A DNA stretch of 64,000 nucleotides from an uncultured Anaerolineales bacterium (GCA_964421785.1 CAYQZG010000001.1:73853-137852); one strand, 5' to 3'. Positions 4,410 through 25,568 are shown, counted from the stretch's first letter. The notes: generated from the letters alone by a model not told the origin. Numbers and translations are program-made.

Positions 4410-5009
4410 CTACTCCACGAAGCCAATGTCCTCAGGAGGCCAGTAGGATATCCAAGCATGGCCTACGATATCCTCTATCGCCACGGGACCAAAACTGCGC
4501 GAGTCGTTGGAAGCGCCTCGATTGTCACCGAGGACAAAGACGTGGAGCGGAGGAATGGTTTGAGGACTGTAGTTTCCTCCACCTTTCTTCACGGTCCAGC
4601 CTTCTTCGAGGCGTTCGCCGTTGACGTAGACGCGTCCGTTTCTTACCTCTATGGTCTCACCAGGCAGGCCGACCACGCGCTTGATCAACATCTCGCTCTG
4701 GTTTGAAGAGTCGATGACGACGATATCTCCTCGGCGAGGGCCGTGAAAGCGATAGGTGATCTTCTCGATCACCACCCGCTGTGAGCTGTGCAGGGTTGGT
4801 TCCATGCTCTGACCCAACACTTGGGTGGCTTGAGCTAGGAAGAGATTGATGAATAGGGCAATGACCACCGCCGGGATGACGGTCTCACCGATTTCGCGCA
4901 ATGTCCGCAGCAGCCACCCTAGCGCGTTAGGCCTTGGGCTGCTCGGTGTCGGTTCGTCAGTGCCTGGGCTGACGAGGTCCGTGGTCTCTTCGTTGATCTC
5001 TTCCATAGC
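4410..5009 (-). CDS. lepB: signal peptidase I
   Basis: Catalytic boxes GQSMEPTL (Ser), KRVVGLPGE (Lys), GDNRGASNDSR. Start placed at internal Met (MEEINEE) because the longer ORF would overlap pnp. Confidence 0.8.
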   Translation of the reverse strand, partial: AMEEINEETTDLVSPGTDEPTPSSPRPNALGWLLRTLREIGETVIPAVVIALFINLFLAQATQVLGQSMEPTLHSSQRVVIEKITYRFHGPRRGDIVVIDSSNQSEMLIKRVVGLPGETIEVRNGRVYVNGERLEEGWTVKKGGGNYSPQTIPPLHVFVLGDNRGASNDSRSFGPVAIEDIVGHAWISYWPPEDIGFVE

Positions 5010-5032
5010 TTGCTCTTGACCTCTCACCTTAT

Positions 5033-7165
5033 CTATCGTCGCCCGCCGCCAGGTCTGTCCGCGGCGCGGGCTTCTTGGGGGGTCCATCCCTCGAGCACGG
5101 CCTGACGGGAGAGGCGAACTTTCCCTTCCCGGTCGATGTTGGTCACCATAACCATGATCTCGTCCCCGACTTGCACGACATCTTCGACGCTGTCGATGTA
5201 CTCGTTGGAAAGCTGAGAGATGTGGACCATGCCATCGGTGCCAGGTAAGATTTCGACGAAAGCCCCAAAGCTCGTGGTTCTCGCCACCCGCCCGGTGTAG
5301 ATCTGGCCGACCTCTGGCTCCTCCGTCAGTGCCTCAATCATCGCCTGTGCTTTCTCGGCACAGGGGCCGCTGGTCGCAGCGACGTAGATGGTGCCGTCGT
5401 CCTCAATGTCGACGCTCACATCACACTGTTCCTCGATCGAGCGCACTGTCTCGCCGCCGGAGCCGATCACGGCACCTAGCTTGTCCGGATTGACGTGCAT
5501 GATGGTCATCCGCGGCGCATAAGGCGAGAAGTCCTCGCGTGGCTCCGGGATAGCATCTGTCATCACGTCTAGGATCTGAAGTCGTGCCTTGCGGGCCTGC
5601 TCCAGCGCCTCGTCCAGAAGCTCGTAGGAGATGCCTCCAAGCTTGATGTCCATCTGGAGGGCCGTGACCCCCTCGCGGGTGCCAGCGACCTTGAAATCCA
5701 TATCTCCGATGTGATCCTCTAGCCCCTGAATATCGGTGATGATCTGGTGGCGATCACCATCCTTCATCATACCCATAGCGATGCCGGCGACCGGTGCCTT
5801 GATAGGGACCCCGGCATCCATCAGGGACAAGGTGCTGCCGCAGATGCTGGCCTGCGACGTTGATCCGTTAGAGCTGAGCACGTCACTCACCACGCGGATC
5901 GTATAGGCGAAGTCATCCTCCTCAGGCAGCACAGGACGCAGCGCGTGCTCGCCTAGGACGCCATGTCCGATCTCCCGTCGTTTGGGACCGCGCAGCGGCC
6001 ACGTCTCGCCGGTGGAGAAGGGCGGGAAGTTATAGTGATGCATATACCGCTTCTTCTCGCGAGGAGATAGATCGTCGATGATCTGCTCTTCTCGGGGAGT
6101 GCCCAACGTGGCAACAGACAGAACCTGGGTCTCACCCCGGGTGAAAAGCCCGGATCCGTGAGCTCGGGGCAGCAATCCCACCTCGGCCGAGAGAGGGCGA
6201 ATCTCCTCTGACTTCCGACCGTCGACCCTCCAATCGTCATAGATGGTCCGCCCTCTTATGATCTCGCGTGCGATATCATCAAGGGCTTCTTTGATCACGT
6301 TGTCGTCCCAACTCTCTCCGAAGTGTGTCACCATATCGTTTTGGAGCGCTCGGACGCGGTTGTCACGGTCTTTCTTGTCTGCAGCGCCATAGAATGCATC
6401 TGCGATCCGATCACTTGCCTCGTGCCGCATGGTGTTAACGAGTTCATCCGGGACCACGCCGTGGAGCGTATAGGCTCGCTTTGGCTTTCCGACAGCTTCC
6501 CGCATCTCATGCTGGGTGTTGATCGTGTCCTGGATAGCATCATGGCCCGAGCGAAGTGCTTCAACCAGGATGCTTTCGTTGACACCCTCGGCGCTTGCCT
6601 CTACCATCAGGAGAGCGTCTCTGGAGCCAGCTAGTTTCAGGTCGAGTGCGCTCTCCTCCATTTGCTGAAGCGTCGGGTTGATGACGAATTCGCCATTGAT
6701 GTAGCCTATCCGGGCAGCGCCAATCGGGCCATCGAAAGGGACATCCGAGATCGTGAGGGCTGCCGATGCGCCAATGATGGACAAGATGTCCGCTTGGTGC
6801 TTCTCATCCTGTGAAAGTGGCGTGATGATGACCTGCACATCATTGCGCATCTTCTTCGGGAAGAGGGGCCGAATGGGGCGATCGGTCAGCCGCGCGATCA
6901 AGATTGCTGACTCGGGTGGTCGCCCCTCGCGGCGGAAGAAAGACCCGGGGATACGGCCTGCTGCGTAGAGCCTTTCCTCAAAATCGACGGTAAGGGGGAA
7001 GAAGCTGATTCCCTCGCGCACGTCGCGTGACATCGTCGCTGTTACCAGCAACTCGGTGTCACCGGACTGTATGGTTATTGCACCGCCTGCTTGCGGAGCG
7101 AGCTTGCCCGTTTCAAACGTAAGGGTTTGCTCTCCTAACGTTGCGGTGAACGAATGGTTATTCAC
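5033..7165 (-). CDS. pnp: polyribonucleotide nucleotidyltransferase (PNPase)
   Basis: 710 aa; two RNase PH domains, KH and C-terminal S1 domain; classic position downstream of rpsO. Confidence 0.95.
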   Translation of the reverse strand: MNNHSFTATLGEQTLTFETGKLAPQAGGAITIQSGDTELLVTATMSRDVREGISFFPLTVDFEERLYAAGRIPGSFFRREGRPPESAILIARLTDRPIRPLFPKKMRNDVQVIITPLSQDEKHQADILSIIGASAALTISDVPFDGPIGAARIGYINGEFVINPTLQQMEESALDLKLAGSRDALLMVEASAEGVNESILVEALRSGHDAIQDTINTQHEMREAVGKPKRAYTLHGVVPDELVNTMRHEASDRIADAFYGAADKKDRDNRVRALQNDMVTHFGESWDDNVIKEALDDIAREIIRGRTIYDDWRVDGRKSEEIRPLSAEVGLLPRAHGSGLFTRGETQVLSVATLGTPREEQIIDDLSPREKKRYMHHYNFPPFSTGETWPLRGPKRREIGHGVLGEHALRPVLPEEDDFAYTIRVVSDVLSSNGSTSQASICGSTLSLMDAGVPIKAPVAGIAMGMMKDGDRHQIITDIQGLEDHIGDMDFKVAGTREGVTALQMDIKLGGISYELLDEALEQARKARLQILDVMTDAIPEPREDFSPYAPRMTIMHVNPDKLGAVIGSGGETVRSIEEQCDVSVDIEDDGTIYVAATSGPCAEKAQAMIEALTEEPEVGQIYTGRVARTTSFGAFVEILPGTDGMVHISQLSNEYIDSVEDVVQVGDEIMVMVTNIDREGKVRLSRQAVLEGWTPQEARAADRPGGGRR

Positions 7166-7367: not shown

Positions 7368-7640
7368 CTATCTGCGCAATCCAAGTCGCTTGATGATTTC
7401 CTTATAGCGATCGGGGTCTTTGCGACTAAGGTAGTTCAAATGGCGCCGCCGCTGGCCTACCATCTTGATCAACCCTCGGCGGGAGTGTTCGTCGTGCTTG
7501 TGTTCCTTCAAATGCTCCGTCAACTGGCTGATGCGGGTGGTCAGCAACGCGACCTGTACTTCAGGGGAGCCTGTGTCATTCTCTGTACGACCGTACTCCT
7601 CAATGATTGTCTGTTTTTCGCTCTTGCTCAGCGACACCAT
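7368..7640 (-). CDS. rpsO: 30S ribosomal protein S15
   Basis: 90 aa, conserved S15 sequence ([31 protein letters not shown]). Confidence 0.95.
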
Positions 7641-7846
7641 GTCCTCCTTGGCTATCTCTATTCAAACGACATTGGGATTTTACCATATTCCGGCCTTCCG
7701 CGCAAGCTAGGCACCCGAGACTTTCCCGGTGGTAGTTTGTAGGGCTGGCTGAATCGCGGTAGAATGAGTTTTCTATCACGGCGGTCGATTGGCTCGGATT
7801 CTCACCTTAGTGGCCCGCGCTGTTGAGGCAAGGGAGGAGGTACGAT

Positions 7847-9412
7847 TTGGCAGAAGCGGACAATGCACGATCGCACCAAAGCATCGGAGTTGCTCAGGCG
7901 GCGGGCATCATCGCCATCGGGAACGTGCTCAGCCGTGTGATGGGCCTGATACGCGAGATTGTCAAGGCAGACCTGTTCGGGGCGGGGGGGCATGTGAGCG
8001 CGTTGGACACAGCGATGGCGCTCCCCAAGATCATCTATGCCCTCGTCATCGGCGGGATGATCAACTCGGCGCTGATTCCTGTCTTCTCAGACTACACAGC
8101 TCCTGAGCGACGGGACGAGCTTTGGCGCTTGCTCAGCTTGCTGCTGGTCGCTGTGACCGTCATCGTGTGTGGCTTCGTTCTGATAGGCGAAGCTCTTGCC
8201 CCCCAGTTGGTCAAGCTTTCTGCAGGGGGATTGCCGCTGGCCGACCAGCAGCTGGCGATTGGCTTGCTCCGTGTAATGCTGCCGGGGATCCTCTTCTTGA
8301 GCTTGGCCGGCGTCCTCTCTGGTGCTCTCTATGCTCTCAAACGCTTCACGCTTCCTGCCTTCACTGCTGTTGTCTTCAACATGGCCATCGTCGTCCTTGC
8401 GGTGGCATTCGGCGGCCGATGGGGTGTGTACAGCATGGCAGTCGGTCTGGTCGTTGGCTCGCTTCTCCAGGTAGTCCTGCAATTGGTAGGCTTGCGCGGT
8501 GCACGCCTTCGTATCGGTCGCGCCTTTCGCCATCCAGCCTTCCGTCGTATTGGGCGCCTCTATCTGCCCATCCTCGCGGGTCTGGTGGTAGACAAGCTAG
8601 CGGAGCTGCTCAGCTACCGCCTGGCCTCTCACACTGGTCCTTCCTCCACTTCTCTGATGACGTACTCTGCGACAATCATCCAGTTCCCCCTCGGTTTGGT
8701 CGGCACGGCCATATCCATCGCCATCTTGCCTACGCTCTCTCGGCAGACGACCAGGAGGCAACTCGGACAGTTCAAGTCGACGCTGGCACAGGGCCTACGC
8801 CTGGTGCTTGCCCTGATGGTGCCAGCAACCGTGGGGCTTTGGGTACTGTCAGCGCCGCTCGTGGGGTTGGTCTTTGGGCACGGACGTTTCACATCCGTCG
8901 ACACGCTTGCGACGGTTGCCGCGCTGCGCTTCCATCTCTTGGGGTTGGTCTTCGCCGCGGTGGACCAGCCACTCATCTTCTCCTTCTACGCCCGCCAGGA
9001 CACCTGGACGCCGGCCCTGGTAGGGGTGGCGACGGTGTTCCTCTACGTCATCGTGGCCTTGGCCCCGACGCTGTTTGCCCCGTTGACACTGAATGGACTG
9101 ATCCTGGCTAACTCGCTCAAGTGGGCTGCCCACGCGCTGTTGATGCTCTTCTTGCTGCGGAGAAGGATGGGCGGCTTGGCGGGAGAGGGGCTGTGGAAGA
9201 CCTTGTTCACAGCCGTTCCGCTGTCCGCTGTGATGGGCTTGGCTGTATGGCTTGTCGTGATGGGCCTGTCCCGGATCGCGCCGGTGAGTACGATGGGCGA
9301 GTTGCTGGTGGTCGGAGGCTCTGGGTTGGTGGGGGTCGGCGTCTACGGCTCGCTAGCCCTCTTGGTGGGCATGGAGGAGATTCAACTGCTGCGACGTACT
9401 GTCGCGGGTTGA
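7847..9412 (+). CDS. murJ: lipid II flippase MurJ (MviN family)
   Basis: about 520 aa polytopic membrane protein with MurJ N-terminal signature (IGNVLSRVMGLIREIV..FGAG). Start moved to TTG at 7847 because the GGGAGGAGG RBS lies inside the longer ORF. Confidence 0.8.
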   Translation: MAEADNARSHQSIGVAQAAGIIAIGNVLSRVMGLIREIVKADLFGAGGHVSALDTAMALPKIIYALVIGGMINSALIPVFSDYTAPERRDELWRLLSLLLVAVTVIVCGFVLIGEALAPQLVKLSAGGLPLADQQLAIGLLRVMLPGILFLSLAGVLSGALYALKRFTLPAFTAVVFNMAIVVLAVAFGGRWGVYSMAVGLVVGSLLQVVLQLVGLRGARLRIGRAFRHPAFRRIGRLYLPILAGLVVDKLAELLSYRLASHTGPSSTSLMTYSATIIQFPLGLVGTAISIAILPTLSRQTTRRQLGQFKSTLAQGLRLVLALMVPATVGLWVLSAPLVGLVFGHGRFTSVDTLATVAALRFHLLGLVFAAVDQPLIFSFYARQDTWTPALVGVATVFLYVIVALAPTLFAPLTLNGLILANSLKWAAHALLMLFLLRRRMGGLAGEGLWKTLFTAVPLSAVMGLAVWLVVMGLSRIAPVSTMGELLVVGGSGLVGVGVYGSLALLVGMEEIQLLRRTVAG

Positions 9413-9528
9413 TGGCTCATTTCCCTCGATTCTGCTAGGCTCTCTCCTTCTTTGGTCCGCGCGGACCGCATTCCTATTAGCAGTACTCGTAGGAGACAAG
9501 AAGAGGGTGGCGCAGTAGAGAAAGGTAA

Positions 9529-9555
9529 AGGCACCACCTGAAGGGTGGTGCCTTA
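9529..9555. terminator. hairpin (AAGGCACCACC/GGTGGTGCCTT) between convergent murJ and oxidoreductase operon; possible bidirectional terminator
   Basis: 11-bp perfect inverted repeat, 5-nt loop. Weak U-tracts. Confidence 0.35.
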
Positions 9556-9600
9556 ATGCTAGAACGCAGCTGCGTCGGCCCTTGTTGGTGGGACGCAACT

Positions 9601-11697
9601 TCAGGGAACGGCGGTGTCCATCTCTTCTTGTTCTGAGGCCTCGCGGGCAACGAGTGCCCCTGTTGGGCAGACTTCAACGCACTTGAGGCAACCATCGCAA
9701 ACCGTCTCGCCTAGTGGCAGCCCCAGATAGGGTGTGACACGGGCGTCCAGGCCCCGACCAGAGAAGTTGAAGACGCGAAGCTCCTTCACGTCGCGGCATA
9801 CCTGGACGCATTGTCCACATAGGATGCATTTGCCCGGTTCTCGAGTCAGATCAGCGTGCGAGTCGTCCAGCGAGTAGTCACGCTTCTTGCCGTCGAAGCG
9901 GTCGGGATCGGCTCCGTACGCCATGCCGTATTCGCGAAGCAGGCAATCACCGACTGCTGAACAATCGCATTCCAGGCAGCGTTTGGCCTCTTCCACCGCC
10001 GCCGGCTCTGAGAAGCACAGTTCCACCTCTTTGAAGGTGCACACGCGCTCGTTCATCCCCAATTCAGGTTGTTCGTGGCGCTTGATCTTCTCTTCGCCAG
10101 CGAAGCGGGCCTCTGGTACTTCCTCCAGGGCTCCCATCGAGACGCTCCAAAGCTCTGGTAATCCGACGACATCCTCGCCGTTCAGGTACTGATTGATGCT
10201 GGCGGCTGCCCGGCGTCCGGCTGCCACGGCTTCCACGGCGATGTTGGCGCCGGTAACACTATCACCGCCGGAGAAGAGCCATGGTTCAGAGGTCTGCATT
10301 GTCTGCTCATCGACGGCGATGGTGTCCCAGCGCGTGAGCTCTACACTGCAGTCTCTCACGCAGTTCGGGTTCACTACCTGGCCAATCGCCATGACAGCCG
10401 TGTCGCATTCGAGCGTGAACTCGGATCCCTCGATGGGGATCGGGCGCCGCCGACCGCTCTCGTCGGGTGGGCCCAACTCCATTCGGATGCTGGTTACTCT
10501 GAGCTCTTCATCGGTCTCCTCGAAGCCGACTGGTGAGGCCAGGAAATGAAACTCGACACCTTCCTCTGCGGCGGCCTCGACCTCTACATCCAGTGCCGGC
10601 ATCTCCTCGCGGGAGCGGCGATAGAGGACAGTGACGTGCTCTGCACCCAGGCGGATGGCGGTGCGGGAGACGTCAATCGCTGTGTTGCCCCCACCGACGA
10701 CGATGACCCGATTGCCGATGGTCACCTTATGACCGCGCGTCAGGCTTTCCAGTAGCTCCACGCCGCCCCAGACTCGGGTACTGTCGATGCCGGGGATGTC
10801 TATCATACGCGAGCGCTGGGCGCCGATGGCCAGGAATACGGCGTCGTAGTCGTCTCTGAGATCCTCCAATCTGATATCCTTACCGAGCTTAGTACTGCAT
10901 CGCAACTCGATGTCCAGATCGGTGATGGTCTTGATCTCGGCATCCAGCATCTCGTAGGGCAGACGATAGGCCGGGATGCCGTAGCGGAGCATACCGCCTG
11001 GTTTCTCTTGCGCTTCGTAGATGGTCACGTGATGCCCCATCTGGCGCGCGTAGTAGGCCGCTGTGAGCCCGGCTGGCCCGGCGCCAACGACGGCGACCTT
11101 GTTACCTGTATCGGGCGCGACGTCGGGCAGATAAGGGTTTTCCTTCTCAAGATCTTGTTCCCCGGCAAATCGTTTGAGCACGCATATCGCCGTGGCGTCA
11201 TCGACGCGGTGACGCCGGCAGGCATCTTCGCATGGAGCAGGACAGATCGAGCCCAAGGCTACAGGGAAAGGAATAGTCTCTTTGATGATCCGAATGGCCT
11301 CATCGTAGTCTCTATCTCCAATGGCAGCGATGAAGCCCGGGATGTCGCAGCCGGCCGGGCAATTTAGCTGACAGGGGCCCAGACAATCGCCACAGTGCTC
11401 GGAAAGCAGCAGTTCCAGTGCGAGGCGCCGCGTGTGGCGGATTTGATCGCTGTTTGTGGTGACGACCATGCCATCTCGCACCTGTGTTCCGCACGACAGA
11501 ACCGGTTTGTCTATGCCTTCCACCTCCACCACACAGAGCAGACAGGAGTTGAAGGGCTCTAGGTCGGGATGATTGCACAGTGTCGGGATGTCAATGCCCG
11601 CCTGTCGTGCCGCTTCAAGAATCGTCCAATCCTTCGCAACGGACATGACCTGTCCGTCGATTGTTATTCGCGCTCTTTCGTTATCGTTCATCGTCAT
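9601..11697 (-). CDS. 2Fe-2S ferredoxin + GltD-like (NADPH-dependent glutamate synthase beta / pyridine-nucleotide-disulfide oxidoreductase) + C-terminal 4Fe-4S domains fusion protein; catalytic subunit of NuoEF-associated complex
   Basis: N-terminal NuoG-like 2Fe-2S cysteine pattern; GltD Fe-S region (CGDCLGPCQLNCPAGC); FAD/NAD(P) Rossmann motifs (VAVVGAGPAGL, VIVVGGGNTAID); C-terminal CxxCxxC ferredoxin motifs. Start trimmed to internal Met to remove overlap with upstream gene. Confidence 0.7.
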   Translation of the reverse strand: MTMNDNERARITIDGQVMSVAKDWTILEAARQAGIDIPTLCNHPDLEPFNSCLLCVVEVEGIDKPVLSCGTQVRDGMVVTTNSDQIRHTRRLALELLLSEHCGDCLGPCQLNCPAGCDIPGFIAAIGDRDYDEAIRIIKETIPFPVALGSICPAPCEDACRRHRVDDATAICVLKRFAGEQDLEKENPYLPDVAPDTGNKVAVVGAGPAGLTAAYYARQMGHHVTIYEAQEKPGGMLRYGIPAYRLPYEMLDAEIKTITDLDIELRCSTKLGKDIRLEDLRDDYDAVFLAIGAQRSRMIDIPGIDSTRVWGGVELLESLTRGHKVTIGNRVIVVGGGNTAIDVSRTAIRLGAEHVTVLYRRSREEMPALDVEVEAAAEEGVEFHFLASPVGFEETDEELRVTSIRMELGPPDESGRRRPIPIEGSEFTLECDTAVMAIGQVVNPNCVRDCSVELTRWDTIAVDEQTMQTSEPWLFSGGDSVTGANIAVEAVAAGRRAAASINQYLNGEDVVGLPELWSVSMGALEEVPEARFAGEEKIKRHEQPELGMNERVCTFKEVELCFSEPAAVEEAKRCLECDCSAVGDCLLREYGMAYGADPDRFDGKKRDYSLDDSHADLTREPGKCILCGQCVQVCRDVKELRVFNFSGRGLDARVTPYLGLPLGETVCDGCLKCVEVCPTGALVAREASEQEEMDTAVP

Positions 11698-16221: not shown

Positions 16222-19200
16222 TTGAGCGATTTGGGTCCTACTCTCATCCGATCCAAGCTGCAGGTGCCAGTTCCTTCCGGCCTTCTTCACCGGTCGCGGC
16301 TCTGTGATGCCATCGAACAAGGCCTTGAGCGCAAGTTGACGCTTATCTCTGCCCCAGCGGGTTACGGCAAGACGTCCGCCTTAGTTGATTTTGCTTGGCA
16401 CACCTCTGTCCCTGTCTGCTGGTACACGATTGATGAGCGAAATCGAGACCTGATTTCGTTCATCAGATATATCGTCGGTGCCATCCGCGAGCAGTTCCCA
16501 GGGTTTGGTGAACGGGTACATGAGGCCTTGGCCTCTCGAGGCAGCGAGCTCTTCCGTGATCCAACCATCGCCGTCGGCGATTTGGTCAACGAGATACTCG
16601 ATCTGGGTACAGAGTTCGTCTTGGTGCTGGACAACTTCGAGTCAGTGGAGGGAGCCTTTGGCATCCGTGAGTTTGTTCACCGATTGCTCGAAGTTCTTCC
16701 CTCCGCTTGTCACTTGATGATGGGCAGTCGTGTGCTGCCCGATGTGCCGATTACACAGCTTGTCGCCAAGCGTCAGCTTGTTGGTCTCACGGAGCAGGAT
16801 CTACGCTTCAAGCCAGAAGAGGTCGTTGAACTACTTCGAGACTCAAAGATTAGGATCTCCGAGAGACAGGCAGAGGCCGTTGCCAGGAATGCAGAGGGCT
16901 GGATCACCGGCATTCTGCTTATATCAGACTTGCTGCGCGAGGATATGGGAGCCATTATCAGTGACACTCGCAAAGCCACGTCTCAGACGTACAGATATCT
17001 GGCATCAGAAGTACTGAGTCGACAGCCTTGGGATCTCAGGCGCTTCTTGCACGCCTCTTCTATCCTGCGCGAGATGTCGGCACGGCTGTGTCGAGAGGTT
17101 CTTGGTATAGAAGGGGCCCACTTCCTTCTAGCCGAAGTCGAAAGGCGCAATCTCTTTGTGACTCGATTTGGCGATGACCGCAGGGCGGCCTATCGTTACC
17201 ATAATCTCTTCAGAGGTTTTCTGCAGGAACGGATGCGGCAGCGAGAACCGACTCGCTACGCCGAGCTTCATCAGCGGGCAGCTGCCTGGTTCGAACAGGA
17301 ACACCAAGTGGAAGAGGCGGTGCATCATTACCTTGCCGCTGAGGCCTACCCTCAGGCGACAACGCTGATGGAACGAGTGGCGTTGGAGTGGTTCACCCGA
17401 GGACGCGTTGAGACGTTGCTCCGCTGGGCAGAAGCGCTACCGGAGAAGATCAGAAGTCAGGCACCACGGCTCTTTCTCTATCATAGCAAAGTACTTACCG
17501 ATCGTTACGAGCATGAGCCGGCAAAGCAGGCCCTGGCCTACGCTGAGGCCGGCTTTGCTGATGAGGGGCTGTTGGCCTGTCTGGCGAGAGTGCACCTTCA
17601 GCATGCAACGTTGGACTTGTTTGGGGGTCGATACGAGGAGGTCATTGCGGAGGCAGAGAAAGCGCTTGAGATGCTGGGTCAGCAGGAGGTCGCGGAAAGA
17701 GCTCAAGCACAACGGCTGATCGGGAGGGCGCATCTCGGGCGCGGATGCTTCGATGCAGGGATCAGTGAACTGGAGGAAGCCCTCGGATCGTATCGGGAGA
17801 TTGGTGGTCTCTACAACGTGGTCAACTTGCTGCAGGACTTGGCCTTCGCTTTTGCCTCCCAGGGACGCTTTGAGAGGGCAGCCCGGTGCTTGAACGAGGC
17901 CTTGCCGATCGCCCGTCGGCTAGAATCGCCGGCCTTGCTGGCCGGAGTGTTGAATAGCTTGGGTTGGATCGACTATGCCTGCGGAAGGTATCGAGAAGCA
18001 CTTTCTCTGTATGAGGAGGGCCTTGCGGAGGCGCGCCGGGGGGGGGATCTCCGTGGACGGGCCAACATTCTGGACGGAATGGCAAGTATCTATCGAGATG
18101 TCGGCGCCTATCGAAGGGCGGAGTCTCTCTACAGCGCCGCTTGGCGGATCTCGCGTGAAAGCAGGCCCCGCCAAGCTGTTCTGATTCTGGTGGCGCGTGC
18201 CGATATGCATCGCTGGCAGGGACAGCATAGCCGAGCTCTTACCTTGCTGGAGGAGGCTAGGCGATTGGCTGAGGAGAAGGAGCTAGTGGTTGAACGCTGT
18301 GGACCATTGGCTATGGCGGAAGGCATAGCCCTGTCTGAAAGCGGCGAACTCGATGCAGGCCTTCGAAGGCTGTCTGAGGCCGTTAGCTTTCTGGAGCAGC
18401 AGAAAGCGAAGCGCAATCTGGCTCGAGGCTGCTTCTTGCTTGCCAAGGCGCGTCTGATGGCCGAAGAGAAGCGGCAAGCTGTCGCAGAGCTCCGCCGGGC
18501 AGTGGAGCTGGCCAGAGAGATTGGCACGGATCAATTCGCTGTCGTGGAGGCGCAGCATGCGGAGGGCCTGGTCGAGGTGGGCATTAGGGAAGGGGTGGAG
18601 GGCTGTAAGACCATCCTCGATGGCGTGCAGAAACTGGAAGCATTTAGAAAAGAGTTGATGTACGATATCGTGGGGCCGGATCGGGTGTCGGAAAGGCGAC
18701 TCAAGATCTACGCTCTTGGGCAATCTCGCGTCGTGGCTCATGGAGAGCCGATCCCTGATTCCGCCTGGCAGGCAGCGATGGCAAGAGAGCTATTCTTCTA
18801 CATTCTACTGCACGGCCCCGTAGAACGGGATACTGTTGGTCTTGTCTTCTGGCCCGATCTACCATCTGACAAGATGATAAACAACTTCCACAGCACGCTC
18901 TATCGTGCGCGTCATGCTGTTGGGAGTGATGGCATAGTGCTGGAGAATGACAAGTACAGCCTGGGCGTGGACTACTGGTTCGACGTCGAGGCATTCGAAT
19001 CCCTGGTTGAGCGCGCACGTCTCTTGCCGCCTCATGATTGGCAGGTTGAGGATCTGTGGCGGCAAGTGGTAGAGCTGTACCAGGGCGATCTGCTCCCCAA
19101 TGTGGACCGGCCGTGGTGTATATCGAGGCGCGAAGCGTTGCGGGCTGGGTATGTCGAGGCGCTGAGAGAGCTGGGGCGATGTCACGAGAGTCGAGGTGCG

Positions 19201-19425
19201 TTCCAGGGCGCCATTACCTGGTACCGCCAGGCACTGAAGGTGGACGAATTGCGTGAGGATCTCCATCGATCCGTGATGCGCGCGTATGCTCAGATCGGTC
19301 GTCGCTCCGACGCAGTAGCTCACTACCGTCAATGCCAGGAGACCTTGCGTCAAGAGTTGGGCGTCGAACCTTCTTGGGAGACGAGAAACCTATACGAAAA
19401 GCTCAGTGGCGGAGTAGCTGACTGA
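16222..19425 (+). CDS. STAND-type NTPase/TPR transcriptional regulator with C-terminal SARP-like winged-helix + BTAD domain
   Basis: Walker A (SAPAGYGKTS) at N-terminus, long helical/TPR middle, C-terminal OmpR-type wHTH (LKIYALGQSRV...LFFYILLHG...LVFWPD) followed by BTAD-like region (VDYWFDVEAFESLV..., ...GVEPSWETRNLYEKL). Confidence 0.7.
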   Translation: MSDLGPTLIRSKLQVPVPSGLLHRSRLCDAIEQGLERKLTLISAPAGYGKTSALVDFAWHTSVPVCWYTIDERNRDLISFIRYIVGAIREQFPGFGERVHEALASRGSELFRDPTIAVGDLVNEILDLGTEFVLVLDNFESVEGAFGIREFVHRLLEVLPSACHLMMGSRVLPDVPITQLVAKRQLVGLTEQDLRFKPEEVVELLRDSKIRISERQAEAVARNAEGWITGILLISDLLREDMGAIISDTRKATSQTYRYLASEVLSRQPWDLRRFLHASSILREMSARLCREVLGIEGAHFLLAEVERRNLFVTRFGDDRRAAYRYHNLFRGFLQERMRQREPTRYAELHQRAAAWFEQEHQVEEAVHHYLAAEAYPQATTLMERVALEWFTRGRVETLLRWAEALPEKIRSQAPRLFLYHSKVLTDRYEHEPAKQALAYAEAGFADEGLLACLARVHLQHATLDLFGGRYEEVIAEAEKALEMLGQQEVAERAQAQRLIGRAHLGRGCFDAGISELEEALGSYREIGGLYNVVNLLQDLAFAFASQGRFERAARCLNEALPIARRLESPALLAGVLNSLGWIDYACGRYREALSLYEEGLAEARRGGDLRGRANILDGMASIYRDVGAYRRAESLYSAAWRISRESRPRQAVLILVARADMHRWQGQHSRALTLLEEARRLAEEKELVVERCGPLAMAEGIALSESGELDAGLRRLSEAVSFLEQQKAKRNLARGCFLLAKARLMAEEKRQAVAELRRAVELAREIGTDQFAVVEAQHAEGLVEVGIREGVEGCKTILDGVQKLEAFRKELMYDIVGPDRVSERRLKIYALGQSRVVAHGEPIPDSAWQAAMARELFFYILLHGPVERDTVGLVFWPDLPSDKMINNFHSTLYRARHAVGSDGIVLENDKYSLGVDYWFDVEAFESLVERARLLPPHDWQVEDLWRQVVELYQGDLLPNVDRPWCISRREALRAGYVEALRELGRCHESRGAFQGAITWYRQALKVDELREDLHRSVMRAYAQIGRRSDAVAHYRQCQETLRQELGVEPSWETRNLYEKLSGGVAD

Positions 19426-19461
19426 GCCTTTGAGCTGCTCGTTCTCCAATCTCGAAACTCG

Positions 19462-19500
19462 ATAAGAGACTGCCTCCGCGGCAGTCTCTTATTCTTTTTT
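19462..19500 (+). terminator. strong rho-independent terminator after the STAND-SARP regulator gene
   Basis: 13-bp perfect stem ATAAGAGACTGCC/GGCAGTCTCTTAT with 5-nt loop followed by TTCTTTTTT. Confidence 0.7.
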
Positions 19501-19601: not shown

Positions 19602-19642
19602 GTTTCGTTTAGAGGTTTGTTTAGAGGCCTATGCTAGTATTG
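19602..19642 (+). promoter_or_regulatory. candidate activator-dependent promoter: tandem direct repeats GTTTAGAGG (12-nt period) about 7 nt upstream of a TAGTAT -10-like hexamer
   Basis: Repeats at 19607-19615 and 19619-19627; -10-like TAGTAT 19635-19640. Layout resembles SARP box promoters, where the direct repeats replace the -35. Confidence 0.4.
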
Positions 19643-19682: not shown

Positions 19683-19871
19683 ATGACTATGAGGCAAAGA
19701 ATACTTCAGGTGTTAGCAGGTCTAGCCATGGTATCTGTGCTCTTCCTCGGTCCAGTCGGGCCTGAGCTTGCAGCACGGTCGTTGGGACAAAGGCTCTATG
19801 CAACTGACCCTGCTAGATCAGCTGGCCCGATGTCGCTATGCGGTATCGATGGCGGTGGTAGTGGGGCCTAA
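19683..19871 (+). CDS. small hypothetical protein with N-terminal hydrophobic (signal/TM-like) segment; coding status uncertain
   Basis: 62-aa ORF preceded by strong RBS GAAGGGGGG; hydrophobic N-terminus ILQVLAGLAMVSVLFLG; codon usage (GC3) atypical for this genome. Confidence 0.25.
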   Translation: MTMRQRILQVLAGLAMVSVLFLGPVGPELAARSLGQRLYATDPARSAGPMSLCGIDGGGSGA

Positions 19872-19882
19872 GGGGGAATGAC

Positions 19883-20110
19883 GTGCCACGAAAAGTTGAC
19901 GAACTGATGTGGCGTGCATTGACTGATGCTGCCTTCCGGGAAGGGCTCATGAACGGCCAACGACGGGAATTGGTCGATGCTATGGGGTTGACCGGAGCGG
20001 AGCGAGAGGCAGTGCTGACGGTGGAGGCCGAGTCGCTTGAGGACTTCGCCGGTGCGCTTTGTCAATCCTGTGCCAAGTCATCAATTATACAGGGGGGCAG
20101 TGTCATTTGA
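19883..20110 (+). CDS. small peptide with NHLP/Nif11-type leader-like domain (candidate RiPP-type precursor or small regulatory protein)
   Basis: 75 aa, GTG start 7 nt after AGGGGG RBS; motif ALTDAAFREGLMNGQRRELVDAMGLTGAEREAVL matches the NHLP leader consensus (AWxDxxFKxxLLxNPKxALxxxGVxLPxGVEI) position by position; Cys/Ser-containing C-terminus (CQSCAKSSIIQGGSVI). Confidence 0.4.
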   Translation: MPRKVDELMWRALTDAAFREGLMNGQRRELVDAMGLTGAEREAVLTVEAESLEDFAGALCQSCAKSSIIQGGSVI

Positions 20111-20142
20111 GCGTACATACGGGAAGCACTGTGTCCCATACA

Positions 20143-20382
20143 ATGCTTAGACAACTGGTTGGCCTGGCCTTGGTCGATAGAGCGTTCTGCGACGACTTGA
20201 TGAACGGTAAGCGGCTTGCACTCCTGGCCGAATTCGATCTTACCGACGAGGAACGAGAGATCGTGGCGTCCTTTGAGACGGGGTCGGTGCGGGAGCTTGC
20301 CATAACTGTACACAACTGGCTCAAGAAGCAGGACAGCCCGGCCTCTCCTCACGTAGACTGCAGCACGACTCAAGTTCTGTAG
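20143..20382 (+). CDS. second, paralogous NHLP/Nif11-leader-like small peptide
   Basis: Aligns with upstream peptide (ALVDRAFCDDLMNGKRLALLAEFDLTDEEREIV); alternative starts GTG 20131 / TTG 20059. Distinct C-terminus (HNWLKKQDSPASPHVDCSTTQVL). Confidence 0.4.
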   Translation: MLRQLVGLALVDRAFCDDLMNGKRLALLAEFDLTDEEREIVASFETGSVRELAITVHNWLKKQDSPASPHVDCSTTQVL

Positions 20383-20389
20383 GAATTCT

Positions 20390-20935
20390 GTGTCTGAGTC
20401 ACGTTATCTGTATGAGGGGAACGGACGGGCATATCTTGGCGAGGTGCCCTTATGTTTGGAGGGATTCCTAGTCGAGAGCTTGGCCTATGGCTTGCTGCAG
20501 GTTTTTGGTGTCAAGGGGCCACCTGTGCCTGTGCGAGATATGGTACGGGATCCTCACCCGGTCTTTGAGCGCTTGAGCCTGTTGGAGCTCAATATCGGTC
20601 TGTACGATGCCGTCTATCGATCGTTGGTCAATGGCTCGCGTCTGATCGCGGTCGATCTGGGCCATCCACTCGCCGTTCAGCGCTTTGCAATGGCCAGGGA
20701 GCTTTACGTGGCTTTCTGTTGTTCCCATCGCGCGGTTGAGTTGGATTGGCCTGATCGGGATCACCCACGAATGCACAGTAGTTTCTTCGCTCGTTGTCTG
20801 CTGATGCCAGCAGCGTGGGTGAAACACGTCGGTGCCAGGACTGGCTCTCTGGCAGAGCTGGCTGCTGTTTTCGGCGTTTCAACCAAGATGATGACCCTTA
20901 GGATGCAGGAAACAGACACAGAGCTTACAGCGTAG
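20390..20935 (+). CDS. ImmA/IrrE (DUF955)-like domain protein, apparently lacking the HEXXH catalytic motif
   Basis: C-terminal region SFFARCLLMPAAWV...LAELAAVFGVSTKMMTLRMQE resembles ImmA/IrrE family (ANxFAaeLLMP...fgVS); position of HEXXH occupied by 'AMARELY...CCSH'. Confidence 0.4.
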   Translation: MSESRYLYEGNGRAYLGEVPLCLEGFLVESLAYGLLQVFGVKGPPVPVRDMVRDPHPVFERLSLLELNIGLYDAVYRSLVNGSRLIAVDLGHPLAVQRFAMARELYVAFCCSHRAVELDWPDRDHPRMHSSFFARCLLMPAAWVKHVGARTGSLAELAAVFGVSTKMMTLRMQETDTELTA

Positions 20936-21941: not shown

Positions 21942-24900
21942 TTAGGGGAGTGTGATGTTGCTCGGCAGGAGCAGGCGATTGTCTGATAGCGGTGCACCCT
22001 CGCTGTCTACGGCTTGGAGTCGCTGCTTTGTGTCGGGATCGTACCAGCCGACGGCGAGGTCGTAGCTCCCGGGCGCCACGTCCTTCGTTGGGAGGTCGAC
22101 TTCGTCTGAGACCACCTCACCCGCGGTCCATTGACCGGTTGGATAGCTGAATCCTCGAGGCATCGTATCCACTTGGGAAGCAGGTTCACCGGTCTCTGGA
22201 TCGGCCAGGTGAACGAAGAACATGTAGTGGCGGTCCGGTGTTTTAAGCGCCTGCCAATAGAGTGTCAGATGGAGGCTCTCCCTACCCTGTGTCAGATCAT
22301 ATCCTGCCAGCTCGATCATATCGCCGAAACGGGCTTCCACGTTTCTGTCCATCTCAGGCAACTTCCAAACGCGCTCTCGTTCTCGGATCCTCACGGAAGC
22401 GGGGTGGGTATAGGAGCCGATTGATGCTCCACCTTTCGGTTCTCTGAGCGTGAGAGAGAGCGTGTAGTCGCCCGGTGGGGACGTTGGAGGGATTGTCAGG
22501 GATGCGCGCCCAGCGACCCAGGCATCGGCTGGCCATTTCTTCGGGGAGGATCCAGGAGCCATTGGTTGTGTGCTGGAGATGCTTCGTTCAGATCCCTCCA
22601 ATTGCCATTCGACCATATAGTCCTGCGAGGGTTTCTTCACGGTCGACCAGTGGGCGGTTGCCTCCAGTTTTTCTCCCTGCCAGACACTTGGTGGTATCTC
22701 GACCCGGTTGAGCACAAGCTCCTCCCCGAACCGAGCCGCAGGGGGCACGTCAGGTCGTCCTGCGGTCCGTGTCAGGCTAATGGGGGTTGCGTACTGCCCG
22801 ATGCTTTCCCAAGTTGCTACGCGGTAAAGGTCGATGGTGAGCGTGTAGGTGTCGCCGGGCGGTACTCCGGGCAGCACGGCCGGGATGTGACGATCCTCGA
22901 TGACGTTATGGAGGGGCCAGAGACTGGTGGGCAGAAAGCCATAACCTGGTTGGGTATCGTAGCCCGGCCGGTCGCCTTGATGCAACCACTCGTTATTTGC
23001 GGCATCGGTCAGGCTCAGGCTGAGGCCGTAGTTGGCGGCGATGGGTTTCACGGCGGACCAGTCGAGTTGGACGTGGAGTCGATCAGGGGCAGGTTGTGTG
23101 GTTTGGACGTCGTGCAAGCGCACGGTGCCATTGGCAAACGTGGCGCGCACAGGCTCTTCTGCGCATGTCCGATCGCGCTTTATCCATATTGGCCGTAAGT
23201 AGACCGGGGACGTGTCGTTGATCTGGAGCAGGTAGATACCCGGTGCTGTTCCCTGCGGAACCGAGAGGGTTATGGTGGTGCTGCCCCTGACGCCAGGGTC
23301 AGACTGCTGCCGATTGAGAGCGATCGGTGCCTCTGCTGTGGCTGGTACCTCGTCTCTTCGTATTGCCGCTGGCGAGAGCAGACGTAACTCTGCAGGAGAT
23401 ATCGCGGAGACGACTGCTGGGTTGTCTTTGTCCCTCCTCCAGTTGAGAGTCACTGCGAAGTCTTTCCCCGGGGTGATTCCTTCGTCAGGGGGAGATTCAA
23501 GGCTTCCGTAGCTGTAGCCGGTCAGTCGCCACCCTTCGAAGGGCACACCGTCTGGATTGTGATGGAGATATGGCTTCTCCTCAAAATCCATTGTCAGATC
23601 GTGGCTAGAGGTGGAGGTAACGCGAGGGTGAAAAGCCGTCACCAGTGACAAGATCACGACGAAGGGCAGATAAGGAGCTGTAGCGTGTCGATTACAGGTT
23701 GCCAATCCCGATATTTCACGTCCATTCTGTCTTCTTTTTCCCTCTTCTTCTTGGTTCCATGGCTCAACACAGAGGACAAGGATCATCAGCATGGCGATAA
23801 GGGATGCGATTTCGGCTCCGAGGCGTAGCGGTGTGCGGCCTAAGCGAATCTTGACTATGTGTGATCCTGGAGGAATGTACAGACTGAGGTAACCTGAGCC
23901 AATGGCCGGCTCTACCTCCATGCGCTTTCCATCCACGACGGCTTGCCAGCCGGGCCAGTAGTAGAGGGGGAAAGCGACCTTCGAGCCCTCGCTTCCTGTC
24001 TCCACGTGCCAGATCCGGCGTGTTGGTTTGCGATCGAGCCTCTTTGCACCGAGGAGCGTTCCATTGATGGGCATGGCACGGGGCCGGGCATCGGGCGAGA
24101 CTTGCTCTGGTCCGATGTAGGGGCGAGGTTTTACCCACTTGGGCAGATACTCATGCCGGATGGTTGAGCCGATATTGCCGGTGAAAAGCTCATACAAATG
24201 CAGTCGCTCAGGGTTTACGTCGTCGGCGCTGATGGGCAGGTAGTCAGGCTGGAGGCCGACCAGCACTGCTGTCGTCAGCAGGATCCCCAACGCAAGAGCG
24301 CAAGCCCAGGCAAGATAGCGGTGTTGGAATCTGATATGGGAGACGGCAGCGCCGGTCAGCAGCGCGGTGAAGAGGGCTTGAATGGAGAGGAAACGCCACG
24401 GGAATTGGGCCATTGACAGCAGGGGAAGGTGGTCCCAAACCGACTGCGAAAGAGGCGTAATCAACCAGGTGCTGAGAAGGAGGCCCAGAAGACTGAAGCC
24501 CAGCTTCATTATGTCCGGATGGTGTGCCTGGAGCTGAGAGTCGAGCTCTTTGGGCTTACCGTGCCGGGTGACGAGTTGTGAGCTAATCCCTCTGAACGAT
24601 ACAATGAGGGCGCCAGCCACTGCCAGTATGGCCTGCAGCAATCCCATTGCGAAGGGGGAAGTGGCACTTTGTCCTGTGGCGTAATCGAACAGGACCTTCC
24701 ACTGCACGAGATCAGTTCCCCGGAAGTGATTGCCATAGAAGAAGTAACCGGTGGTTTGAGCACTGAGTTGGACGTACTTGGTCTCCGCCAGGGCCGGCAG
24801 CCAGAACCAGGCTGAGAGCAGCAGGGCTAGCAACAAGGGGGATGTGAGGAGTGAGCAACGGGCGATGGCCCTCCCGAACGGGTAATCTGGCCCTGAGCTC

Positions 24901-25568
24901 GTCGTACGCGTGATGTGAAGCGTCACATAAAGGAGGATGAAGGGCGAAAAGATGAGGGCGGAGACGTTGTGGGTGACGATGAGGCCAGCGTAAGCCAGGG
25001 CTGGGAATAGGGCCCTCCGTGCAGATGGCTGCAAAGCGAGCCGATCGAATCCCCAGAGGATGAGGGGATAGAAGGCGAAAGCCGCGAATTCAGAGAGGGA
25101 GTCTCCGCGTACGTAGATGTTGATGAGGTGGAACGGGGCTGATATGTAGGCCACAGCGGCAAGCCAGGCTCCAGGACGGCTGCGGAGGACCTTTTTGGTC
25201 CAGTGGTACATCGCTAGGGCCGATACTGCCAGGAAGAGGGTCTGCGTCAGTTTGATTGCCGTGAGGATATCCAGGCCGAGGACCGCAAAGCCTGCAGCGA
25301 GGTAGTATGGCAGGGCTGCGTAATAGCTGAAGAAGGGGTAGCCAAACCCATAGGCTGCATCGGGCATCCATCGAACCGGAAATACACCGGCGCGCAGATT
25401 GGCTGCAAGCTGATGCGTGCGAAGCAACAGGAAAGGGCTATCACCGCCTCCGCGCGTGTTCAGCAGGCCAGCGCCCCATACTGGACCTGCCGCAAGCAGT
25501 GACAAAAGCAGGAGCGTCGCCGGGGGAATGATCCGTTCCCAGGCGACGCTCCGTGAAGCGGTCTTCAT
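21942..25568 (-). CDS. large (1208 aa) polytopic membrane protein with big extracytoplasmic C-terminal domain; putative GT-C-type glycosyltransferase/YfhO-like
   Basis: About 14 predicted TM helices in N-terminal 600 aa by hydrophobicity, then long soluble region; family assignment tentative. Confidence 0.45.
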   Translation of the reverse strand: MKTASRSVAWERIIPPATLLLLSLLAAGPVWGAGLLNTRGGGDSPFLLLRTHQLAANLRAGVFPVRWMPDAAYGFGYPFFSYYAALPYYLAAGFAVLGLDILTAIKLTQTLFLAVSALAMYHWTKKVLRSRPGAWLAAVAYISAPFHLINIYVRGDSLSEFAAFAFYPLILWGFDRLALQPSARRALFPALAYAGLIVTHNVSALIFSPFILLYVTLHITRTTSSGPDYPFGRAIARCSLLTSPLLLALLLSAWFWLPALAETKYVQLSAQTTGYFFYGNHFRGTDLVQWKVLFDYATGQSATSPFAMGLLQAILAVAGALIVSFRGISSQLVTRHGKPKELDSQLQAHHPDIMKLGFSLLGLLLSTWLITPLSQSVWDHLPLLSMAQFPWRFLSIQALFTALLTGAAVSHIRFQHRYLAWACALALGILLTTAVLVGLQPDYLPISADDVNPERLHLYELFTGNIGSTIRHEYLPKWVKPRPYIGPEQVSPDARPRAMPINGTLLGAKRLDRKPTRRIWHVETGSEGSKVAFPLYYWPGWQAVVDGKRMEVEPAIGSGYLSLYIPPGSHIVKIRLGRTPLRLGAEIASLIAMLMILVLCVEPWNQEEEGKRRQNGREISGLATCNRHATAPYLPFVVILSLVTAFHPRVTSTSSHDLTMDFEEKPYLHHNPDGVPFEGWRLTGYSYGSLESPPDEGITPGKDFAVTLNWRRDKDNPAVVSAISPAELRLLSPAAIRRDEVPATAEAPIALNRQQSDPGVRGSTTITLSVPQGTAPGIYLLQINDTSPVYLRPIWIKRDRTCAEEPVRATFANGTVRLHDVQTTQPAPDRLHVQLDWSAVKPIAANYGLSLSLTDAANNEWLHQGDRPGYDTQPGYGFLPTSLWPLHNVIEDRHIPAVLPGVPPGDTYTLTIDLYRVATWESIGQYATPISLTRTAGRPDVPPAARFGEELVLNRVEIPPSVWQGEKLEATAHWSTVKKPSQDYMVEWQLEGSERSISSTQPMAPGSSPKKWPADAWVAGRASLTIPPTSPPGDYTLSLTLREPKGGASIGSYTHPASVRIRERERVWKLPEMDRNVEARFGDMIELAGYDLTQGRESLHLTLYWQALKTPDRHYMFFVHLADPETGEPASQVDTMPRGFSYPTGQWTAGEVVSDEVDLPTKDVAPGSYDLAVGWYDPDTKQRLQAVDSEGAPLSDNRLLLPSNITLP

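Follow-up and report, generated by a model that had tools for sequence, protein, structure and literature searches.

A MalT-clade STAND regulator with a C-terminal SARP module, next to a candidate tandem-repeat operator and conserved small genes in Chloroflexota

The closest described relatives of the protein reported here come from two groups of large bacterial transcription regulators. The literature treats SARPs as an actinomycete family with an N-terminal DNA-binding module, and it defines MalT and the other LAL regulators by their LuxR output. SARP classes, as one preprint summarises them for Actinomycetes, are small, medium, large and SARP-LAL, the SARP domain of the large class being placed at the N-terminus. 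We analysed a stretch of 64,000 nucleotides from an uncultured Anaerolineales bacterium (GCA_964421785.1 CAYQZG010000001.1:73853-137852), hereafter the window, in which a single open reading frame (ORF) on the plus strand encodes a regulator of 1067 amino acids (aa) whose layout is absent from those four classes in the preprint's summary. It runs from a TTG start at 16222 to a TGA stop at 19423-19425 (16222..19425), and it joins an N-terminal STAND ATPase of the MalT clade to a central tetratricopeptide repeat (TPR) sensor and a C-terminal SARP module. In our judgement the protein is probably a signal-dependent STAND transcription activator, MalT-like with a hinge-joined C-terminal SARP output, that controls the adjacent operon of small genes. 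All coordinates are those of the window and all features lie on the plus strand unless stated otherwise.

By sequence and by predicted structure, the ATPase belongs to the MalT clade of STAND proteins. Its nucleotide-binding oligomerisation domain (NOD), made up of nucleotide-binding, helical and winged-helix subdomains (NBD-HD-WHD), covers aa 1-342 (16222..17247), as delimited from sequence and Foldseek matches to the MalT NOD structure 8bob and from the secondary structure of the full-length model. Residues 8-519 match the NCBIfam MalT model NF003420 (E 7.3e-75) with 252.6 bits, under the MalT equivalog cut-off of 537 bits, and aa 8-407 align with 8bob in a sequence search of solved structures (E 3.7e-34). 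Foldseek on the full-length model places chain 8bob_C first (E 9e-15) and the archaeal STAND-TPR protein PH0952 (6mfv) second. WHD_MalT PF25873 is annotated on orthologues of the regulator, and a Pfam scan of the full protein gives no NB-ARC (PF00931). The Walker A motif GYGKTS, which a first, sequence-only reading of this DNA had placed near the N-terminus, lies at aa 47-52 (16360..16377) and is kept in all 77 of the 77 regulators examined. Walker B, VLVLDN at aa 133-138 (16618..16635), aligns with VIDD of MalT, the second acidic residue being replaced by Asn. Among orthologues D137 is invariant and N138 is at least 90% conserved; the DN form occurs in 15 loci of the window clade and the DD form in 49 distant loci of the family.

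The start of the gene deserves comment, as the identical protein at NCBI (P0001) is called at 1029 aa. This call is 38 aa shorter and begins just before Walker A, so that the part encoded by 16222-16335 is missing. Because the N-terminal segment is conserved, with the MalT alignment beginning at residue 8 and orthologues spanning residues 1-1067, we prefer the long TTG start, and the shorter call is probably truncated.

The C-terminal ~245 aa hold the output. BTAD, assigned to aa 921-1062 (18982..19407), is matched by PF03704 at aa 920-1061 (E 3.4e-25) over model positions 1-145 of 146, and positions 26-264 of the NCBIfam AfsR model align to aa 824-1060 (E 4.5e-21). At the level of sequence, AfsR chains among the solved structures align with aa 877-1059 only. 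The Pfam family Trans_reg_C (PF00486) is found neither in the full protein (E<=0.01) nor in the isolated segment (E<=10), and for this reason the OmpR-type winged helix-turn-helix (wHTH; aa 825-920, 18694..18981) was taken from structure prediction. An AlphaFold2 (AF2) model of aa 790-1067, computed with 119 homologues, was confident, with a predicted local distance difference test (pLDDT) of 92.2 and a predicted template modelling score (pTM) of 0.84. A small beta-sheet, three helices and a wing formed by a beta-hairpin give it the OmpR-type topology, and a helical bundle follows. In a Foldseek search of the PDB with this model, AfsR 8k60 is the top match (E 4e-10, 248/249 columns, target-normalised TM score, TMt, 0.78), AfsR 8hvr is also found, and EmbR 2fez follows (query-normalised TM score, TMq, 0.70), with generic TPR proteins far lower. 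The wHTH directly precedes BTAD and packs against it, as in the AfsR fragment and in EmbR, and the superposition extends over the whole module at TM 0.70-0.78. A complete wHTH+BTAD SARP module is present according to the model. The motifs that had been quoted from the sequence alone (LKIYALG, LFFYILLHG, VFWPD, YRAR, VDYWFDVEAFESL and GVEPSWETRNLYEKL) are all in the translation and are conserved in the 119 orthologues.

Between ATPase and output lies a helical sensor. The arm and roughly nine TPR-like repeats take up aa 343-790 (17248..18591), assigned from Pfam, Foldseek and the model; Pfam detects TPR_MalT PF17874 (E 2.2e-17), TPR_12 and other TPR models here, and Foldseek on the full-length model aligns the sensor with MalT domain III (1hz4) at TMt 0.79 over 371 columns. 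The TPR-like centre described earlier is therefore real. A linker helix and a disordered hinge follow at aa 791-824 (18592..18693), the hinge proper (aa 815-824) falling below pLDDT 50 between two confident blocks. The full-length AlphaFold model (pLDDT 86.1, pTM 0.53) lays the protein out as NOD at aa 25-330, arm at 343-430, about nine TPR-like repeats at 431-790, linker helix, hinge, wHTH at 827-920 and BTAD at 921-1062.

With MalT and the LAL regulators the protein shares a MalT-clade NOD, the Walker A sequence GYGKTS/T, the WHD, the arm, a helical-repeat sensor and a C-terminal DNA-binding output. By analogy it would presumably also multimerise when triggered by a ligand and bind repeated sites cooperatively. 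It differs in its output, which is a wHTH+BTAD SARP module of ~245 aa where MalT has a LuxR/GerE HTH (Pfam finds no LuxR/GerE HTH in the regulator), as well as in its score under the MalT equivalog cut-off, the DN of its Walker B and its host phylum, Chloroflexota. The earlier description of a MalT/LAL layout with a SARP output is thus accurate. AfsR and the large Streptomyces SARPs contain the same kinds of parts, namely a SARP module, a STAND NOD and TPRs, but here the SARP module is C-terminal, the NOD is of the MalT clade rather than NB-ARC, and the candidate operator repeats with a period of 12 bp. The sequence-only reading had called the protein reversed relative to AfsR; this is right for the order of the domains and wrong for their descent, as the two NODs come from different STAND clades. 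A circularly permuted AfsR was therefore rejected, and since the NOD is MalT-clade and not NB-ARC, the protein is an independent fusion. Of the Pfam families that had been expected in the protein, BTAD and TPR were found and Trans_reg_C and NB-ARC were not. EmbR of Mycobacterium tuberculosis has the same wHTH+BTAD fold and inter-domain packing, but there the module is joined to an FHA domain at the C-terminus and control is by phosphorylation, whereas the regulator carries an N-terminal STAND ATPase and a TPR sensor. PH0952 of Pyrococcus horikoshii, a predicted transcription factor, also combines a STAND NOD with a TPR sensor; its effector is an N-terminal ArsR-like domain (PMC6468293), in contrast to the C-terminal SARP module found here.

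The region downstream of the regulator contains a candidate operator and promoter. An intrinsic-terminator-like hairpin with a T-run (19461..19500; 14-bp stem with 6 GC pairs, then CTTTTTT) comes after the regulator stop, in the position of the regulator's own terminator. It is followed by a tandem direct repeat, GTTTAGAGG-ttt-GTTTAGAGG, with a 12-bp period (19607..19627), which is our candidate SARP binding site. The repeat is perfect and is the sole such site within the 64-kb window. Autoregulation through a second repeat copy upstream of the regulator was accordingly rejected for the window. When pairs of GTT[TC]AGAGG, with at most one mismatch in each unit and 12-nt spacing, were searched for in 17 orthologue loci, 9 were found in 12.2 kb downstream of regulators compared with 0 in 419.5 kb elsewhere. 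A de novo search, in which no motif was given, took the 1.2 kb after every regulator and asked for tandem 9-mers with TAnnnT behind them; the period was 12 in 102 matches, 11 in 10, 10 in 2 and 13 in none. The sequence of the repeat is specific to the clade (TTGTTTAGAGG, TTGTTCAGAGG, TTGAAGCCTG, TTGGTGAGT, TTGCATCCTG and others), and so is the predicted recognition helix that goes with it. NFH(S/T)TLYR pairs with GTT(T/C)AGAG, RFKNEIYR with TTGAAGCCTG in 6/6 loci, and (L/F)RS(S/T)LYR with TTGGTGAGT. This co-variation of predicted helix and repeat type is suggestive only.

Seven nucleotides after the second repeat lies an extended -10-like element, TGcTAGTAT (19632..19640). Orthologue loci with a repeat pair keep TGnTAnnnT at this offset, and the element sits a median of 42.5 nt upstream of the start codon of the first small gene, sp0 (22 loci). 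A sigma-70 scan upstream of sp0 gave no canonical -35/-10 promoter. An extended -10 without a -35 is typical of activator-dependent promoters, and the sp0 promoter, with an extended -10 only and no -35 hexamer, agrees with such a class. The repeats occupy the -35 region just upstream of the -10-like element, and on sequence this geometry appears to match the published description of a SARP (AfsR) promoter (PMC11301090). As at AfsR promoters, the candidate operator consists of tandem direct repeats that lie just upstream of the -10 and overlap the -35, the distance to the -10 being about 8 nt for SARP sites. Some orthologue loci (L005, about 6170-6201; L007, about 7640-7672) have three successive repeat units, a hint at the binding of more than two SARP modules. 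No RNA family was found when the complete window was scanned against Rfam at gathering thresholds, so none explains the intergenic regions.

The genes that follow are small and their association with the regulator is conserved. The first, sp0 (19683..19871), is an ORF for a 62-aa peptide preceded by a strong Shine-Dalgarno ribosome-binding site (GAAGGGGGG). The peptide begins with a basic segment, contains a single hydrophobic helix and ends in a Gly-rich stretch (…CGIDGGGSGA), and has no Pfam family match. In most loci an equivalent ORF stands at the same position behind the tandem-repeat promoter, its C-terminus varying by clade; the ORFs of distant loci end …LFVLAAGAPxxTGSVGG. Under a fixed heuristic, the 122.6 kb that follow regulators hold 56 sp0-like ORFs, as against a single one in the 1.46 Mb used as control, an enrichment of ~650-fold.

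The next two genes encode paralogous small proteins with a shared core of ~60 aa and a weak resemblance to the NHLP clan. The 75-aa product of sp1 (19883..20110) matches NF038399 at E 2.6e-6 and PF14407 at E 0.0076, both under the cut-offs, and the ~80-aa product of sp2 (20131..20382) matches NF038399 at E 3.3e-5, which corresponds to 27.4 bits for sp1 and 23.9 bits for sp2 against a cut-off of 40 bits. The start of sp2, considered by alignment with orthologue N-termini, is GTG at 20131 or ATG at 20143. Tails in the sp1/sp2 family are variable, 0-30 aa long and without a GG site, and sp1 orthologues end soon after ALCQ, which is conserved. Ribosomally synthesised and post-translationally modified peptide (RiPP) tailoring enzymes are absent from the conserved regulator/small-gene module. 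The characterised Os1348/PflA proteins of Pseudomonas are a separate family and come with tailoring enzymes; sp1 and sp2 resemble the Os1348/PflA leader domain weakly and differ in having no such enzymes nearby. We rejected sp1 and sp2 as Os1348/NHLP RiPP precursors on their sub-cut-off scores, their short variable tails and the missing GG site. A distant homologue of the small proteins (locus L061) had no sequence match to any solved structure.

After sp2 comes a gene for an M78-like protein of 181 aa (20390..20935; PF06114, E 8e-8), in which the HExxH motif has become ARELY. Counting the window, 12 of the fetched loci conserve the gene, with 10 distinct sequences; none of them has either histidine, and ARELY stands in place of the motif in all 10 orthologues. 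From its sequence the protein is unlikely to be a canonical zinc protease and is probably a pseudo-peptidase or has some other function.

Linkage of the small genes to the regulator was followed with an in-house hidden Markov model (HMM) built from sp1 and sp2 of the window. An NHLP-like gene lies 0.3-1.7 kb downstream of the regulator in 68/84 loci; where the flank is 2 kb or longer, the figure is 15/15 for orthologues and 48/53 for distant relatives. The same-strand order after the regulator, two or three small genes and often the M78-like gene, is found in three differing neighbourhoods. Linkage is kept across homologues that are 27-66% identical and have otherwise different neighbourhoods, and repeats, sp0-like peptide and NHLP-like gene all recur beside regulators that are only 27-36% identical. 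In 42/53 distant loci, a polytopic DUF5317 membrane protein (PF17248, E 1e-35) with conserved NGGxMP, LSD and FSxGD is encoded between sp0 and the NHLP-like gene, for instance in L021 (about 8365-8980) and L038 (about 4429-5028). Neither the window clade nor the rest of the 64-kb window has DUF5317, and a literature search on it found nothing relevant. The small-peptide genes that the sequence-only reading had placed directly downstream of the regulator are thus real and conserved. Its suggestion that the regulator is a pathway-specific activator gains strength from the conserved linkage and from the SARP-like geometry of the repeats; the products, by sequence, look unlike classical RiPP precursors. 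As with AfsR and afsS, the presumed target lies directly downstream and encodes small proteins.

How might such a regulator work? In the resting state the NOD would be closed. Some ligand would bind the TPR sensor and so permit the NOD, like that of MalT, to exchange nucleotide and multimerise head to tail. Multimerisation would gather at least two SARP modules, which could then bind side by side on repeats of 12-bp period, in the window the two copies of GTTTAGAGG. The bound repeats would cover the -35 region of a promoter with no more than an extended -10, and the SARP modules would recruit RNA polymerase as AfsR does, so that the adjacent operon (sp0, the two NHLP-like small proteins and the M78-like protein) would be switched on. 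Two DNA-binding domains of AfsR sit on a single face of the DNA and take the place of sigma region 4 (PMC11301090). STAND proteins in general are reset by ATP hydrolysis (PMC4381067, PMC6468293), and their effector domains may sit at either end of the protein (PMC6468293); both principles support the reading of the regulator as a MalT-type switch.

Several points weigh against this mechanism. The typical period of a SARP site is 11 bp, and the period here is 12 bp. Several loci have no detectable repeat under strict criteria, and phylogeny confounds the helix-repeat co-variation, as clades share both. The DNA-binding domain appears divergent, being missed by the Trans_reg_C profile, and the arrangement of the domains relative to one another in the full-length model is uncertain at a pTM of 0.53. 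With DN in Walker B, ATP turnover in the window clade may differ from that of MalT; MalT Walker B mutants are said to indicate that DN may slow hydrolysis. Finally, the repeat scan covered 64 kb of the genome, and other targets are possible.

The ligand could in principle come from the operon itself. TPR regulators of the RRNPP group (PlcR, Rap, NprR, PrgX) are encoded beside a small gene with a signal-like hydrophobic product, and here too a TPR receptor gene adjoins a small gene with a signal-like hydrophobic segment, across deep divergence. This is an analogy only, as RRNPP proteins have no STAND ATPase and their DNA-binding domain is not homologous to that of the regulator. By such logic sp0 would be exported and processed, in most clades by DUF5317, and its Gly-rich C-terminal part, or else an NHLP-like protein, would be the TPR ligand, so that the regulator activates its own signal. 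The position of DUF5317 between sp0 and the NHLP-like gene in most distant loci and the clade-specific C-termini of sp0 speak for peptide sensing. Yet Gly-rich termini are poor specificity determinants, neither an Opp-type importer nor an export ABC transporter is consistently linked, DUF5317 is lacking in the window clade, and the argument is one from adjacency and the signal-like segment of sp0. We regard such autoinduction as unlikely; it would refine the activator mechanism and not replace it. A wider proposal, to which we likewise give a small chance, is that regulator, 12-bp repeat operator, sp0, DUF5317 and NHLP-like proteins together form a phylum-wide circuit, unrecognised so far, for peptide signalling or development in filamentous Anaerolineae. 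DUF5317 would then possibly be a membrane-embedded processing enzyme, and the STAND-SARP protein would sense its own operon's product through its TPRs, again RRNPP logic built from unrelated parts.

Activation of the adjacent operon by the regulator must also be set against readings in which the repeats or the protein do something else. AfsR is a global regulator with several targets, and the 64-kb limit of our scan together with the loci that have no clear repeat would fit a regulator of distant or global targets, the adjacent repeats then being the site of another factor or an UP-like or structural promoter element. We find this rather improbable. Repeats lie directly downstream of the regulator in clades that are 27-66% identical, their sequence changes with the recognition helix, their geometry to the -10 is as published for SARPs (PMC11301090), and the genes stay linked in spite of varying flanks. 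A site that overlaps -35 to -20 could in principle also block RNA polymerase, in which case the SARP module would occlude the promoter as a repressor or roadblock. However, the promoter has an extended -10 only, no -35 hexamer being recognisable at the proper spacing, and the SARP/BTAD module of AfsR is an activator that replaces the contacts of sigma region 4 (PMC11301090), so repression is very improbable. Avs3 (8dgc) appears among the STAND matches of Foldseek, a point in favour of an Avs-like anti-phage defence protein that is no transcription factor at all. We consider such a role scarcely credible and rejected it: PADLOC gave a generic TPR match and no Avs/NLR model, the effector is a DNA-binding SARP module and not a nuclease or protease, and the context is a conserved small-gene operon and not a defence island.

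The combination of a MalT-type NOD with a C-terminal SARP module is a large and old family that annotation pipelines already label. In a search of 5.8 billion proteins, grouped in 90%-identity clusters, at least 1083 clusters match the regulator at E<=1e-10. The best 120 clusters are full-length, 55-66% identical, and all have BTAD, WHD_MalT and TPR_MalT. Database labels read 'BTAD domain-containing putative transcriptional regulator' (NCBI) and 'MalT / DNA-binding SARP family' (JGI), and the labelled homologues come from Anaerolineae, Thermoflexia and other Chloroflexota. In species-representative genomes, at least 581 genomic stretches encode relatives; many of these relatives align over residues 4-1061 at only 27-36% identity. 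Chloroflexota is the source of each of the 79 loci fetched, one of them from the cultured Longilinea arvoryzae KOME-1. The SARP module alone, searched against 1.84 billion 50%-identity representatives, had 477 matches at E<=1e-30, and in the best 150 of the 477 it stands at the extreme C-terminus of proteins that are mostly ~1,000-1,100 aa long. Across relatives, then, the SARP output is kept and the small genes remain linked, but the architecture is common and annotated and therefore less novel than the sequence-only reading implied.

Literature searches found no paper describing this architecture or BTAD in Chloroflexi. The domain combination is neither rare nor unlabelled, yet it lies outside the published definitions of SARP and LAL regulators. 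A specialist would not be greatly surprised, because STAND proteins shuffle effector domains. What this analysis adds, judging from sequence comparison, is a testable regulatory module made up of a putative operator, a promoter and a conserved small-protein operon. In this family, hundreds of lineages from another, poorly studied phylum use a SARP module at the C-terminus as the output of a MalT-type switch. As predicted operator, promoter and targets adjoin the regulator, and as Longilinea arvoryzae KOME-1 is a cultured host, the proposal is directly testable. Such a system could show how STAND oligomerisation is converted to SARP-type polymerase recruitment, and could offer a first way into the function of DUF5317 and of the conserved small proteins of Anaerolineae.

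Two further ORFs were seen near the regulators. In the window, a 1208-aa ORF lies on the minus strand at 21942-25568; its counterpart in locus L001 carries PF10131 (PTPS_related), and its synteny extends to the closest relatives only. In the Longilinea arvoryzae locus (L075), the NHLP-like gene is followed by a 404-aa ORF (9281-10495 of that locus) that by eye resembles a GAF plus HD-GYP-type protein.

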